Source: an uncultured Bacteroidales bacterium (lineage in GTDB: Bacteria > Bacteroidota > Bacteroidia > Bacteroidales > B18-G4). From it: a stretch of DNA of 64,000 nucleotides. The stretch covers positions 2,645-66,644 of the forward strand of contig CAZDWF010000002.1 of NCBI GenBank assembly GCA_964508895.1, written 5' to 3'. The translations under genes were made by a program, and so were the position numbers. Under the pieces are notes generated by a model that was not told the origin of the DNA, ran no database searches, and saw only the letters and a list, made by a program, of their open reading frames with translations. Positions 8,459-49,252 of this stretch are shown here, piece after piece. Numbering within the stretch: the stretch's first letter is position 1; each line of letters opens with the position of its first letter.

Positions 8459-9746
8459 TATGTTTCCAAAAATTGAATATCAGAGTCGTGATAACATCTC
8501 TGATTATCAAAATGAAAGATTGCCGGAGTTTTTAAGCTATTTGCAAAATAATTCAACATTTTATAAAAAGCATTTCAGGAAATATAAAGTTGATATTTTG
8601 AAAATAAAAAGTATTTCAGATCTTTCTATAATTCCTGCTACTACTAAAGATGATCTGTATAAGTTTAATCAGGATTTTATTTGCGTGCCAGCTGAAAAAA
8701 TCATAGATATTGTTACAACTTCAGGAACACTGGGTGATCCGGTTACTTTTGTGATGACAGACAAAGACCTTGATAGGCTAGCATACAATGAATACGTTTC
8801 CTTCTTATGTGCCGGAGGCAGTAAAGATGATATTTACCAGCTGATGACTACTATCGACAGAAGGTTTATGGCAGGATTGGCATATTTCCTGGGCGCAAGG
8901 AAACTTGGTGCAGGTATTGTTCGCGTAGGAAATGGCATGCCTGAGCTGCAATGGGATACTATAAACAGAGTAAAACCAAATTCATTTATTACAGTTCCTT
9001 CATTTTTACTTAAGCTGATTGAATGGGCAGAGGAAAATGGAATAGATTATAAATCTGCTTCTGTTGAAAAGGCCATTTGTATTGGTGAACCCTTGAGAAA
9101 CCCGGATTTTTCGTTGACAACACTTGGAGAAAAGATCAAAGAAAAATGGGATATTAAACTATACTCAACTTATGCATCAACTGAGATGGCGACCGCATTC
9201 ACTGAATGTGAATATGCATGTGGTGGTCACCATCATCCTGAATTGATTATCGTTGAATTTCTTGATGAAAATGACAATCCTGTTAAAGAAGGAGAGGCCG
9301 GTGAAGTTACAATCACTACTTTGGGTGTGGAAGGTATACCTTTATTAAGGTTTAAAACAGGAGATATTTGCTATCACTTTAACGACCCATGTAAATGTGG
9401 TAGAACAACAATGAGGTTAGGACCTGTCATAGGACGTATGAAACAAATGATCAAGTTTAAAGGTACTACTCTTTACCCCCCTGCATTGTACGATATATTG
9501 GATAATATTCCGGAAATCCGCCATTATGTTGTGGAAGTTTATACTAATGATATAGGAACTGATGAGATAATGATCCGTATTGATACTAAAGAAATGAGTG
9601 CTGATTTTGAAAAAAGACTTAAGGACCATTTCAGGGCAAAATTGCGCGTGGCACCAGTAATCAGCTTTGAAAGTCAGAAAGATATTGAAAAGATAAAGTT
9701 CCCTGAAGAAAATAGAAAAGCTATTAGCTTTATTGATAGAAGGTAG
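8451..9746 (+). CDS. Phenylacetate-CoA ligase-like adenylate-forming enzyme (PaaK / coenzyme F390 synthetase family), copy A
   Basis: Motifs TTSGTLGDP, YASTE, FKTGD and KFKGT. About 430 aa. Start overlaps the stop of the C45-like gene. Confidence 0.8.
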   Translation: MSNMFPKIEYQSRDNISDYQNERLPEFLSYLQNNSTFYKKHFRKYKVDILKIKSISDLSIIPATTKDDLYKFNQDFICVPAEKIIDIVTTSGTLGDPVTFVMTDKDLDRLAYNEYVSFLCAGGSKDDIYQLMTTIDRRFMAGLAYFLGARKLGAGIVRVGNGMPELQWDTINRVKPNSFITVPSFLLKLIEWAEENGIDYKSASVEKAICIGEPLRNPDFSLTTLGEKIKEKWDIKLYSTYASTEMATAFTECEYACGGHHHPELIIVEFLDENDNPVKEGEAGEVTITTLGVEGIPLLRFKTGDICYHFNDPCKCGRTTMRLGPVIGRMKQMIKFKGTTLYPPALYDILDNIPEIRHYVVEVYTNDIGTDEIMIRIDTKEMSADFEKRLKDHFRAKLRVAPVISFESQKDIEKIKFPEENRKAISFIDRR

Positions 9747-9785
9747 TGTTTAGCCATTAGTGTTTAGTAATATTATTGATTATAT
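9744..9785. repeat. Heptad array TAGNNNN
   Basis: Units: tagtgtt tagccat tagtgtt tagtaat attattg attatat. The first TAG is the ligase stop codon. Confidence 0.75.
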
Positions 9786-9905
9786 TTGATCTGGTATTTT
9801 GTTGATCATTTATTAATTCTATAAGCACTCAATAATAATAGATTATTAGCTCACTGCCAATACCCCAATAACTATCTGTTAAAATCGAACATAAACATCA
9901 ATATT

Positions 9906-10529
9906 ATGAAAAAATTAATTCTAATTCTCGCTTTGGTACTTTATTTTGCACCAACAGCTTTCAGTCAAAATGTGACAAATATATTTAACTTAAGCAGCTG
10001 TACCTGGTACGGACTGGATTTTTCAAAGGTCAAACTGATAGGTTCTGAAGGATTTAATGATACCCAGGCCATCAAAGATCAGTTTTTTAGTTCCTGGAAT
10101 TACCTGGTACTTAATGAACCTGAAAAATATAACATCGGAAAAGCTTTTAATAAACAAAATGTAGATTATTACCTCGATGTTATTAATGAAAGGAACAAGT
10201 TGCCTGAGATAGATGATCTGGTTACAGCTGACAATAATTACAGTATTTCTGAGGATGAAGTGAAATCAATAATTAGTGAGTATAGATCTGAGGGTAAATC
10301 AGGTATGGGAATAGTTTTCATTATGGAATCCTTTAATAAATATATAGAGGAAGGGACCATGTGGGTTACTTTTTTTGATATAGAAAGCAGAAAGGTTTTA
10401 TTTGCTGATAAACTTTCAGGAAAAGCAGGTGGCTTTGGTTTCAGGAATTATTGGGCTAAAACATATTATAATGTAATAAAGGAAGTTGAGAAAAAGAAAT
10501 ACAAACAGTGGAGAAAGCAATTTGAGTAA
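9906..10529 (+). CDS. Secreted hypothetical protein, copy A
   Basis: Signal peptide MKKLILILALVLYFAPTAFSQ. No recognisable catalytic motif. Confidence 0.6.
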   Translation: MKKLILILALVLYFAPTAFSQNVTNIFNLSSCTWYGLDFSKVKLIGSEGFNDTQAIKDQFFSSWNYLVLNEPEKYNIGKAFNKQNVDYYLDVINERNKLPEIDDLVTADNNYSISEDEVKSIISEYRSEGKSGMGIVFIMESFNKYIEEGTMWVTFFDIESRKVLFADKLSGKAGGFGFRNYWAKTYYNVIKEVEKKKYKQWRKQFE

Positions 10530-10534
10530 AAAAG

Positions 10535-10570
10535 AAAAGGCTGTCTTGAAATAAATCAGGACAGCCTTTT
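10535..10570. terminator. Bidirectional hairpin between convergent genes
   Basis: Sequence aaaaggctgtc-ttgaaataaatca-ggacagcctttt. A/T runs flank it on both sides. Confidence 0.6.
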
Positions 10571-47596: not shown

Positions 47597-49120
47597 TGAA
47601 GGTTCAAGCCAGTTAAAAATATCCCATTTTGTTTTCGGGCGCCGTTCTCCCCGCCATTTGAATCCTTTTAAGCGGAGTTCATTCTGAGGCAACTCTCCCT
47701 CAGGGTAAAGAACAGCATCAGGCCTGTCGATATAAGTGATAGTTATAATATCATTATTTTCCAGGAAAATAAGCATCTTGCTGGATAAGGCCTTGTTAAC
47801 ACCGATCAGGTTCCGGTCTTCTTCCCTGACAAAATATAAGGTCTCTGAATTTCCTGAAACAGTAATTTTATAGATCTTATTCCTTTTAAAATAGCCCACC
47901 ATATTTTTCCCTTTTATCTGGTTATATGTTCTATCCAGTGTATCATCCATTGAAATGATAAAGCATGAATTCACAAGAACCATCGAATCAACCTCATCGT
48001 TTGCATTTACAATTCGAATGGTATCGGCAAAAAGCTGGTTATCTTCTGTCCATAATATAGGTCCATTAAACAATGTTACTGTTGAATCAGGGAAATAATA
48101 AACCAGAGAATCGCATAATCCCTGAAGGTCTTCACGGAAAAATTTAACTTTATAATATGCATAAATAGATTCAGCATGATCCAGCGAATCAGACCTGATC
48201 AATAGAGTGTCGGCATGTAAAAAAAGGGAATCATAACGGTCGATCATAATAGCCACCGCGCTATCCGTCACAAAAGCATAACCGTCACGCCTGTCGAATT
48301 CAGCATAATTCCCTGTGATCGCAACATCCTGAAGAGTATCTCTTATCAGAATTTCATCATAAGCCTCACCATATTCATTGCCATTATCAAAATAAATACT
48401 GTCGCCATACATCTGCTGTTCATTATGCCTGATAAAAGCATTCTGCTTCAGATAAGCCACATCATTCTTTGTGTCATATTTTCCACGTTCACAATAAATC
48501 GAATCCTCTTCACCTAATATGTTCGTTGGCCCCAGTATATATGCAATTTCTGTATCGGTATTATACTTAAGTGTATCCGAATACATTTCATAATCAGGAT
48601 TCACAAGCACAACACTATCCTTAAAGAAAAACTCCTTATCGTCAGTATAATAATATCCGATCTTGCTGGTGAGCACATTAGTATCACTCACAATGCGGCC
48701 CCCTGTATTATAATAGGCAATACCCGTTAAACGATGATAGGTAAGATGTTCTGTAGTAAGAACAGCCCTGTTGTCTTCCAGGATAACATTGTAATGCAGG
48801 TATGCAATTTTTGTCGAGCCCTCATAATTCATGATGTCACCATAAATATCTGTTGAATCATTTACATCAATATGCACATTTCCAAAAGCATTGAAGTTAT
48901 TATCTTTCTTGTTGAGGTATGCACTATCGCAGTAAAATAATGTGCTATCCTGTTTGAGTATAACATCACCTATAAGCCTTTCAATATCTTTCCCTATCCT
49001 TTCATCATACTTCAGGTCGTTAGCACGGATCAGCATCACTTTGGTCTTTTGCTGTGAAAAGGCATTAGATGCAATGATGAGCAAAATGATTATTGAAATG
49101 TATTTTAGGGATTGATCCAT
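47585..49120 (-). CDS. OstA/LptA-like repeat protein
   Basis: Signal peptide. OstA-type pattern (GDVILKQDSTLFYCDSAYL...AFGNVHI) recurs along the protein. Confidence 0.55.
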   Translation of the reverse strand: MDQSLKYISIIILLIIASNAFSQQKTKVMLIRANDLKYDERIGKDIERLIGDVILKQDSTLFYCDSAYLNKKDNNFNAFGNVHIDVNDSTDIYGDIMNYEGSTKIAYLHYNVILEDNRAVLTTEHLTYHRLTGIAYYNTGGRIVSDTNVLTSKIGYYYTDDKEFFFKDSVVLVNPDYEMYSDTLKYNTDTEIAYILGPTNILGEEDSIYCERGKYDTKNDVAYLKQNAFIRHNEQQMYGDSIYFDNGNEYGEAYDEILIRDTLQDVAITGNYAEFDRRDGYAFVTDSAVAIMIDRYDSLFLHADTLLIRSDSLDHAESIYAYYKVKFFREDLQGLCDSLVYYFPDSTVTLFNGPILWTEDNQLFADTIRIVNANDEVDSMVLVNSCFIISMDDTLDRTYNQIKGKNMVGYFKRNKIYKITVSGNSETLYFVREEDRNLIGVNKALSSKMLIFLENNDIITITYIDRPDAVLYPEGELPQNELRLKGFKWRGERRPKTKWDIFNWLEPSLED

Positions 49121-49176
49121 TGTAAATTTATTGATGCAAAGCTACAAAAATAAGAGATTATCTTTACCCACTTCAA

Positions 49177-49200
49177 CCTCTCCCTACTTGCAGGGAGGGG
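49177..49200 (-). terminator. Hairpin downstream of the lipid kinase gene
   Basis: Sequence cctctccct-acttgc-agggagggg. The 9-bp stem has one mismatch. Confidence 0.4.
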
Positions 49201-49211
49201 TTAAACTACCT

Positions 49212-49252
49212 GCACCCAATTCTTAATTATTAATTCTTAATTTTTAATTCTC
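49212..49252. repeat. 41-nt expanded copy: GCACCCAATT-(CTTAATT)-ATTAATT-(CTTAATT)-TTTAATTCTC
   Basis: Equals the 39884-39910 element plus two CTTAATT heptads. Its complement encodes the last six codons (ELKIKN) and the stop of the lipid kinase gene. Confidence 0.8.

Follow-up and report, generated by a model that had tools for sequence, protein, structure and literature searches.

Short degenerate heptanucleotide tandem repeats between the genes of an uncultured Bacteroidales bacterium

The stretch of DNA considered here (the window) comprises 64,000 nucleotides of contig CAZDWF010000002.1 (positions 2,645 to 66,644 of the forward strand; assembly GCA_964508895.1) from an uncultured Bacteroidales bacterium. 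We mapped 44 long open reading frames (ORFs) in the window, among them genes for an AMP-binding ligase, an archaeal-type Glu-tRNA(Gln) amidotransferase, a Metallophos protein, an S46 peptidase, RidA, LptD_2 and a DAGK-like protein, which leaves about 3.4 kb of spacer DNA. A first-pass annotation of the sequence had described, between these genes, runs of consecutive 7-nt units that are variants of one another, and all ten unit strings that it quoted were found where it had placed them. Here we confirm that short, decaying 7-nt tandem repeats between the genes are real and well beyond chance, and we weigh what they may be.

Results

Spacer DNA carries a specific period-7 signal

The null model was a set of 500 dinucleotide-preserving shuffles of each spacer. 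Sequence identity at a lag of 7 nt was 0.329 in the spacers of the window compared with 0.285 in the shuffles (z = 5.8), and z rose to 6.5 when 40-nt margins were added to allow for over-extended ORF starts; none of the 500 shuffles attained the observed lag-7 value at any lag. Lag 7 was the highest of all lags, lag 1 included, and lags 14 and 21 were likewise elevated. In coding DNA, lag-7 identity was 0.264, on par with neighbouring lags and without excess, so the restriction of the arrays to intergenic DNA, as originally described, holds. In 10 of 29 spacers, against an expectation of about 1.5, lag 7 came first among 20 lags, and the excess was roughly equal across tandem, convergent and divergent spacers.

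A local maximal-segment scan, which applied one fixed scoring rule to every period and a threshold score of 7 for calling an array, returned seven period-7 arrays in the window: six at gene boundaries and a seventh upstream of the called gatE start. Each period that was not a multiple of 7 gave 0–1 arrays. Tandem Repeats Finder (TRF) reported 11 period-7 rows, compared with 1.87 ± 1.52 (maximum 6) in 30 block shuffles. Autocorrelation against shuffles and a period-7 repeat search had both been proposed in the first-pass annotation as checks, and both bore it out. Array density was 0.96–1.9 per kb at gene boundaries versus 0.017–0.17 per kb in deep coding DNA; at a score of at least 10 the two values were 0.96 and 0.017 per kb.

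Masking 16 arrays (420 nt, about 8% of boundary DNA) brought the lag-7 z from 4.5 to 0.8. The phenomenon is therefore one of discrete short arrays, and a diffuse 7-nt periodicity of the spacers was rejected, as it was gone after masking. Nine contigs assembled independently from several sequencing runs were 100% identical to the window across the arrays, which are therefore not assembly artefacts. The 16 arrays measure about 2.4–6 units, fewer than the 4–14 that had been claimed for these otherwise real features. Part of what had been counted, at 22286-22342, has a period of 10/5: the repeat TACTTTAACT occurs 3.5 times at 22286-22320, directly 3′ of gatD and beside a heptamer array at 22343, so not all spacer repeats here are 7-periodic.

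Most arrays have cores of their own

The cores of most window arrays are unrelated to one another, with at least ten unrelated cores in 64 kb. The array at 9744..9771 (plus strand), read from the sequence, is (TAGNNNT)4, with units TAGTGTT TAGCCAT TAGTGTT TAGTAAT, and starts with the termination codon of the gene for the AMP-binding ligase (8451..9746). It is weak, with adjacent units 4–5/7 identical and a score under the threshold of 7, and its spacer has a lag-7 z of 3.5 with lag 7 first of 20 lags. An exact second copy lies at 12360..12387 (plus strand); it was made by a 2.6-kb tandem duplication (described below), so the pair counts as one event, not two.

The array at 13893..13920 (no strand assigned) is (AAGATRC)4, a perfect 14-nt dimer of AAGATAC AAGATGC detected both by TRF (score 58 at period 14, 100% match) and by the segment scan (score 18.5). 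The spacer is a divergent one, and the array is 47 nt upstream of the start codon (ATG, 13846) of a minus-strand secreted-protein gene. TRF found perfect 14-nt super-repeats of this kind at 13893 and at 49218. TRF and the segment scan also detected (CTATTCA/CCATTCA)4 at 18792..18824 (plus strand), some 63 nt upstream of where gatE is called to start (18887), a gene call taken from an independent Logan contig (L092). Past gatD, in a convergent spacer, an interrupted (NNATTCC)5–6 array occupies 22343..22384 (plus strand; TRF period 7, 64% matches; lag-7 identity 0.57).

In a tandem-gene spacer, (NCCNAGN)5 occupies 33198..33234 (plus strand; ACCCAGT ACCCAGA GCCTAGA ACCAAGA ATCCAGA; segment score 11.5). 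The array at 42520..42543 (minus strand), identified by TRF and by comparison with congeners, is (TTGCYYC)3, which reads CAAGGGG CAAGAAG CAAGGGG on the plus strand, and adjoins a promoter-like TTGAATCC...TATCTTTG upstream of RidA. At 55566..55582, (ATTCAAT)2.4 (no strand assigned; TRF 100% match, and segment scan) lies in a convergent spacer and overlaps the TGA stop codon of a minus-strand gene (55568..56101).

Three core families recur

All-versus-all comparison of the spacers, together with direct inspection, identified three families in the window, (AANAATT)n with four copies, (GAYNCCN)n with two and (CGTNACG)n with two, and the spacer comparison gave no shared families beyond these. The cores had been described as locus-specific; with three families recurring 2–4 times per 64 kb this is too strong, and most cores are unique.

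The (AANAATT)n arrays (AATTNTT on the plus strand) each lie on or just past the TAA stop of a minus-strand gene, for the S46 peptidase, RidA, LptD_2 and the DAGK-like protein, and all are assigned to the minus strand. At 39885..39911, (AANAATT)3 followed by GGGTGC overlaps the stop of the S46 peptidase gene (39903..42065). At 42071..42099, (TTAANAA)3–4 (TRF, segment scan and alignment with congeners) occupies the entire 31-nt spacer between RidA and S46. A two-unit member, AAAAATT AATAAT, found by spacer comparison at 42558..42571, is 9 nt past the stop of the LptD_2 gene (42577..45324). At 49212..49252, (AANAATT)5 followed by GGGTGC (TRF scores 54 and 61; segment scan) overlaps the stop and last 7 codons of the DAGK-like gene (49230..50129). 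The arrays at 39885 and 49212 have both flanks in common (GAGAATT ... AATTGGGTGC) and differ by 14 nt, with 3 versus 5 units.

The two (GAYNCCN)n arrays are also paralogous. The first, at 27960..28001 (plus strand; segment scan and blastn), has six units, GATTCCT GATTCCT GACACCG GATACCA GACTCCG GACTTCG, and includes the TGA stop of the Metallophos gene (27246..27968). The second, at 35496..35526 (minus strand; blastn and alignment), has four, GATTCCG GACACCA GATGCCA GACTCCT, and with a preceding degenerate unit begins one base past the TAG stop of gene 35531..37708. They are 24/27 identical (blastn, 35497-35523) with the same unit order, and both begin at the stop codon of the upstream gene, in the sense orientation of that gene.

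The third family, (CGTNACG)3, has a palindromic unit and brackets a 23S_rRNA_IVP-family gene (52337..52699) on left (52129..52149) and right (52723..52743), with no strand assigned to either copy and a lag-7 identity of 0.86. Across the arrays, the distribution of unit differences over columns fits random mutation (z −1.1, P 0.88), and column-specific constraint was rejected as not significant.

Gene cassettes and local duplications

The flanks of two small gene cassettes had both been said to follow the 7-nt logic. This stands for the flanks at 52129/52723. Those at 18149/18578 form a 38-nt inverted repeat that is not 7-periodic, with top lags of 9 and 12. Here a PDDEXK_3 gene (18186..18584) lies between inverted repeats at 18149-18186 and 18578-18615 (37/38 identical; TTAACCGCAATAGACGCAAAGGAAGGCGCAATGGACGC), the independent contig L092 ends exactly at 18586, and a 16-nt solo copy of the inverted-repeat end occurs at 39830-39845, downstream of the S46 gene. 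The unit looks like a mobile or intervening sequence-like mini-cassette. The 23S_rRNA_IVP-family gene belongs to a four-helix-bundle family. In two congeners of the window (L095 and L096), (CGTNACG)n stands alone past the LptD_2 stop (9406-9433 and 1019-1044, respectively), so the lone repeat there may be an empty insertion site.

The recent tandem duplication that copied array 9744 spans 2,627 bp (8406-11032 versus 11023-13648; 99.96% identical, one gap). The AMP-binding ligase gene and a 207-aa gene are doubled along with the spacer arrays. The junction coincides with the microhomology TATATGAAG; of the secreted-protein gene, the first copy is cut short (10583..11014, 143 versus 238 aa). Tandem paralogues also lie at 28048-30892 (FG-GAP/Por_Secre_tail proteins, 477 aa each) and at 31019-35339 (689 and 681 aa), the latter with the final ~24 nt of coding DNA nearly identical. 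Together, the two paralogue pairs and the 2.6-kb duplication suggest frequent local duplication in this region.

Period-7 bias varies between lineages

We assembled a panel of the window, 4 genome loci and 80 metagenomic loci (1.1 Mb; one duplicate locus excluded), anchored on the S46 peptidase at 46–60% identity. It held 72 period-7 arrays, 56 of them intergenic, compared with at most 14 intergenic arrays for each period that is not a multiple of 7. Lag 7 was the top lag in 9 of 56 loci and very strong in four (L074, L036, L004 and L003); the bias was missing in many others, so that its strength depends on lineage. An E. coli control had no lag-7 excess (z 0.7). The congeners L095 and L096, whose S46 peptidases are 86% and 84% identical, respectively, to that of the window, conserve gene order and have lag-7 z values of 2.3 and 4.9. 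The excess is already present at two units: 89 kb of panel spacers contained 63 exact two-unit heptamers against 10.4 expected, a six-fold excess, compared with a much smaller absolute count for period 8, 15 against 2.7, and values near 1× for periods 4, 5 and 9.

The families (AANAATT)n and (CGTNACG)n are found in L095 and L096 as well, and (GAYNCCN)n is also found in the distant locus L074 (Ga0310813_10000002). This 22-kb locus has 13 (GATRCCR)n arrays in six spacers, nearly all as plus/minus inverted pairs 20–170 nt apart and present in nearly every spacer, as in a REP (repetitive extragenic palindrome)-like dispersed element with heptamer-periodic arms; the unit is related to the arrays at 27960 and 35496.

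The nearest GatE and S46 homologues belong to Bacteroidales/Bacteroidota metagenome-assembled genomes (MAGs), in agreement with the Bacteroidota host named in the first-pass annotation. An archaeal origin of the window, prompted by the archaeal-type amidotransferase genes gatE (18887-20845; Pfam GatB_N) and gatD (20866-22251; GatD_N and Asparaginase), was rejected on the same ground. GatE relatives in such MAGs (L001–L004) are 72–75% identical, so gatE and gatD are a lineage trait and not contamination.

Arrays change by whole units at orthologous sites

Unit number varies between congeners. At the site between LptD_2 and RidA, the window has (TTGCYYC)3, L095 has (TTGCRAC)10 and L096 has no array; this site lies directly upstream of a conserved promoter-like TTGAATCC...TAnnTTTGA. 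The ten-unit (CTTGCRA) array of L095 (9443-9516, score 62), directly upstream of the promoter-like TTGAATCC...TATATTTGA of RidA, is a candidate for influencing expression in a unit-number-dependent way. In the spacer between RidA and S46, (TTAANAA)n has 3 units in the window, 4 in L096 and 1+3 with a hairpin insertion in L095, and the alignment of the window with L096 contains exactly one 7-column gap.

The sequence (AATTAAN)n-TTGG(G/T)T at the S46 and DAGK stops is kept in the window, L095 and L096, while the sequence beyond it has diverged. Outside this genus-level clade, what follows the S46 stop is either an unrelated heptamer array, such as TGACGAG TGGCGAG TAGCGAG TGACGAG in L036 and GATACCA GATGCCG in L074, or no array at all. 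Ancient conservation of the array at this stop was thus rejected, and its absence or replacement in distant lineages argues for repeated origin and turnover.

In L095, a hairpin of 20–25 nt, CCCTTCGAC(A/T)A(G/C)GCTCAGGG, occurs as an insertion at TTAA within three different (AATTAAT)n arrays (about 9942-9966, about 12187-12206 and about 1995-2014); it is missing from the window and L096. A longer, nested version lies in the DAGK–OstA spacer of L095. The hairpin looks like a mini-insertion of the MITE (miniature transposable element with inverted repeats) type that targets arrays.

Arrays follow no positional or structural rule

For 71 arrays from the window and related loci, placement was compared with random placement within the spacer. 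Contact with stop codons, to which many arrays had been said to be tied, was observed 18 times against 13.7 expected (p about 0.09), and neither stop nor start codons were significantly preferred. A general stop-codon association was rejected on this test; only the (AATTAAN)n family, whose unit contains TAA, bears such a link, and there it is nearly trivial.

No array overlapped any of the 27 terminator-like sites (hairpin plus T tract) that were found. Folded as RNA, the arrays were no better than shuffles (z −1.3 to +0.3), except that the left (CGTNACG)3 flank contributes to a hairpin at 52137-52166 (fold z −2.9). A search of the whole window against Rfam 15 at the gathering threshold gave 0 matches, and a known RNA family was rejected. 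Consensus scans and RNA folds thus revealed neither overlap nor structure; a terminator role was rejected, and the 3′-end or termination function that the annotation had offered found no footing.

Relation to known heptamer repeats

Heptanucleotides are the most abundant class of long simple sequence repeats (SSRs) in most prokaryotic genomes, according to the account of Mrázek et al. 2007 given in later papers (PMC4679880, PMC4692102), where the proposal is also related that 7 nt may match the DNA contacted by the polymerase, favouring slippage. The over-representation of heptamers in prokaryotic intergenic DNA, some Bacteroidetes included, is therefore already known. The novelty implied in the first-pass annotation falls away, since the SSR excess has been on record since the 2007 survey, as later papers relate it, and five Bacteroidetes with heptamer repeats are named in PMC4679880.

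The long SSRs surveyed in prokaryotes (Mrázek, Guo & Shah 2007; Huang & Mrázek 2014, PMC4060949), as related in PMC4679880 and PMC4692102, share with the window head-to-tail 7-nt units, intergenic over-representation, a sporadic phylogenetic distribution and exclusion from coding DNA, 7 not being a multiple of 3. Tandem 7-nt units, a compositional excess, intergenic concentration and unit-number variation between congeners are all present here. The window arrays are much shorter and more degenerate (2.4–6 imperfect units) than the long perfect repeats of those surveys; only the ten-unit array of L095 is clearly long.

Short tandemly repeated repetitive (STRR) sequences of heterocystous cyanobacteria have the units CCCCAGT (STRR1), TTGGTCA (STRR2) and CAACAGT (STRR3). 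The analogy with these, drawn in the annotation, is apt in that both are intergenic heptamer tandems of function not known, with several unit sequences per genome. The STRRs form a few high-copy families in cyanobacteria, whereas the window, from a different phylum, has many cores. No STRR1–3 tandems were found in the window at up to one mismatch, and ACCCAGT at 33199 agrees with STRR1 at 6/7 positions, in just two units. In the Bacteroidales MAG locus L004, ACTGCTG ACTGTTG ACTGTTG (18857-18881) corresponds to the reverse complement of the STRR3 unit, which is probably a coincidence.

Repeats of GGGAATC, or (GGGANTN)n, in Xanthomonas and of GGGGA(C/T)T in Nostoc are degenerate intergenic repeats, most of them with about 4 units; some form inverted pairs, and they occupy the same gene gaps in sister species with variable length and sequence (Rehm et al. 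2015, PMC4692102). The arrays studied here share these traits, and the window unit GATTCCT is the complement of AGGAATC, one base off GGGAATC. They differ in that no single family dominates the window and that their units lack G3 runs, hence have no G-quadruplex potential. Tandem GGGAATC or GGGGATT is absent from the window, the nearest being AGGAATC AGGAATC at 27960, with GG only.

Direct repeats of TAACTGA occur in Beggiatoaceae, Cyanobacteria and five Bacteroidetes, including the Bacteroidales genus Paludibacter (MacGregor 2015, PMC4679880). They too are intergenic heptamer direct repeats (2–6 copies, often beside start or stop codons), but the window arrays have no preference for the position just upstream of starts. 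There were 0 TAACTGA tandems in the window at up to two mismatches and no exact ones in the panel.

REP elements, bacterial interspersed mosaic elements (BIMEs) and MITE-like elements are short intergenic elements at many loci, which the inverted pairs of L074 and the recurring families of the window resemble. The window arrays are, by contrast, direct tandems without palindromic arms (the CGTNACG unit excepted), mostly single-copy, and shift in length by whole 7-nt units; palindromes or terminal inverted repeats with many near-identical copies were found only in the inverted pairs of L074. Judged by their sequences, the window arrays would belong to the general heptamer-SSR kind and to none of the named sequence families, and membership in the STRR1–3, TAACTGA, GGGAATC or GGGGATT families was rejected, as the window has no tandems of those units.

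Discussion

We think it reasonably probable that the arrays are short, degenerate heptanucleotide SSRs of the STRR type, a lineage-specific mutational feature of non-coding DNA. The signal is specific to period 7, restricted to intergenic DNA and made up of discrete arrays; copies differ by whole units and have arisen repeatedly, and they obey no structural or positional rules. Slipped-strand mispairing in replication or repair would create a local 7-nt tandem duplication, after which whole units or two-unit blocks could be gained or lost. Duplication of a block after point mutation of a unit would give 14-nt higher-order repeats such as the perfect super-repeats at 13893 and 49218, and point substitutions would wear arrays down until they are lost in the background. 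Since a 7-nt insertion or deletion in coding DNA shifts the frame, arrays would be kept out of genes, persisting only between them or across last codons. Where a unit contains TAA, TAG or TGA, three units would be enough for a stop in each of the three frames, and this may account for the Metallophos gene (27968) and the DAGK-like gene (49230) having their ends within arrays.

A few arrays are copies of each other, forming small dispersed families, and most cores are unrelated. The whole-unit differences between orthologous and paralogous copies fit birth, expansion and decay by this route. Among the roles proposed in the first-pass annotation, a slippage hot spot fits best, given the unit counts of the congeners (3/10/0 and 3/4/1+3) and the 3 versus 5 units of paralogous arrays. 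No function would be needed to explain the arrays, and individual ones beside promoters or stop codons could be co-opted.

Several points weigh against slippage as the full account. Taken alone, it leaves unexplained both the preference for 7 over 5, 8 or 10 nt and the recurrence of cores at unlinked loci and in other genomes, namely (AANAATT)n-TTGGGTG, (GAYNCCN)n and (CGTNACG)n. That (AATTAAN)n-TTGG(G/T)T is retained amid diverged flanking sequence hints at constraint or homogenization. Variation in (CGTNACG)n and (AANAATT)n is confined to one column, which is suggestive and individually non-significant (P 0.13–0.17). There was also no unit-number polymorphism in the nine strain-level contigs, a comparison made powerless by their being 100% identical throughout.

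It is unlikely, in our judgement, that the arrays are single-stranded RNA or DNA binding sites for a protein whose subunits each contact about 7 nt, for example a cold-shock/OB-fold, S1, RRM or ring-shaped HutP/TRAP-like regulator acting on the 5′ or 3′ untranslated regions (UTRs) of mRNA. Such binders would be suited by the unstructured RNA of the arrays, by the placement of many of them in probable UTRs, directly past stops or just before starts, and by (AATTAAN)n-TTGG, which three species retain at the same gene ends despite diverging flanks. Binding of CspB to heptamer repeats, one protein per heptamer, has also been discussed (PMC4679880). HutP and TRAP of Bacillus bind periodic UAG or GAG triplets with a fixed 5–7 nt period in single-stranded RNA, and the HutP site has three UAG triplets with four-nucleotide spacers between them. 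Array 9744, which reads (UAGNNNN)4, resembles such a site in having a short core at a fixed period, a likeness of spacing alone, and these Firmicutes proteins act at specific leader regions, whereas the window cores vary by locus. With at least ten unrelated cores in one 64-kb window, a single protein could not read them all. Unit number and even presence vary between congeners, neither position nor spacer type is preferred, conserved columns are not above chance, and no candidate protein was identified, although no search aimed at HutP or TRAP homologues was made.

The arrays might instead be copies or remnants of dispersed elements, small and mobile or recombinogenic, that happen to have heptamer-periodic arms, whether REP/BIME-like, MITE-like or attachment sites of mini gene cassettes, an origin that we hold to be distinctly improbable. 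Cores do recur at unlinked sites (27960/35496; 39885/49212; (CGTNACG)3 at the IVP gene, in L095 and in L096), inverted (GATRCCR)n pairs fill nearly every spacer of L074, and the 25-nt hairpin at TTAA inside three arrays of L095 indicates that arrays can serve as insertion targets. Most arrays, however, have unique cores, and the copies in the window are unpaired, with neither target duplications nor terminal inverted repeats. No nearby gene of the transposase or RAYT type was noticed, the window not having been systematically searched for one, and mobility leaves in-place whole-unit changes, the arbitrary two-unit excess and the period of 7 unexplained.

Very unlikely, to our minds, is a dedicated enzyme that makes 7-bp duplications, such as a nuclease or recombinase with a 7-nt staggered cut and fill-in, whose repeated rounds would build arrays from whichever local sequence was cut. 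This would accord with an excess that peaks sharply at 7 already at the two-unit stage, with cores that are mostly local and arbitrary, with strong lineage variation in intensity, as a gene-dependent process would give, and with the presence of PD-(D/E)XK-family genes in the window. Yet no enzyme was identified, and a tie between heptamer richness and the PDDEXK_3/IVP mini-cassettes was rejected, as arrays had no significant association with these genes in the panel (p 0.13, only 3 informative loci). We know of no common bacterial insertion sequence family that makes 7-bp target duplications, which also counts against it, and slippage is the simpler source of 14-nt block repeats and ten-unit arrays.

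Several arrays lie directly past stop codons and in convergent spacers, as intrinsic terminators or 3′-end processing signals might, but this role is highly improbable given that none coincides with a predicted hairpin-plus-T-tract site, that fold energies equal those of shuffles, that arrays are equally common in divergent (promoter) spacers and that the stop association is not significant. Chance patterning of AT-rich, low-complexity spacers is scarcely credible: the arrays are short and several are weak (9744, 33198, 35499 and 42520 are below or near threshold), so that chance is conceivable for individual weak arrays only, but it is refuted for the ensemble by shuffles that never attain the observed lag-7 value, a concurring TRF comparison, the lack of effect at other periods and replication in independent genomes.

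If the arrays are simply neutral SSRs, the finding is ordinary. In practice, they create all-frame stops, can reshape gene C-termini (27968 and 49230) and may mislead gene callers and assemblers. There is a slim chance that they are made by, or serve, machinery working in a 7-nt register, either a dedicated lineage-specific duplication activity or a platform for single-stranded nucleic acid-binding proteins. In that case the recurring families would serve as functional cis-elements at the ends of genes, or as landing pads for mini-cassettes, and the long-unexplained ‘7’ of bacterial heptamer repeats would have a molecular cause.

The preference for 7 nt in bacterial non-coding DNA has been a puzzle since the description of STRRs and the 2007 SSR survey, and to our knowledge the only explanation offered so far is the polymerase-footprint guess. 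The window provides a compact example with good controls, apart from the usual cases in cyanobacteria and Xanthomonas. With its discrete arrays, two-unit excess, 3-to-10-unit expansion between congeners and recurring gene-end families, this Bacteroidales lineage is suited to testing slippage against protein binding and mobility.

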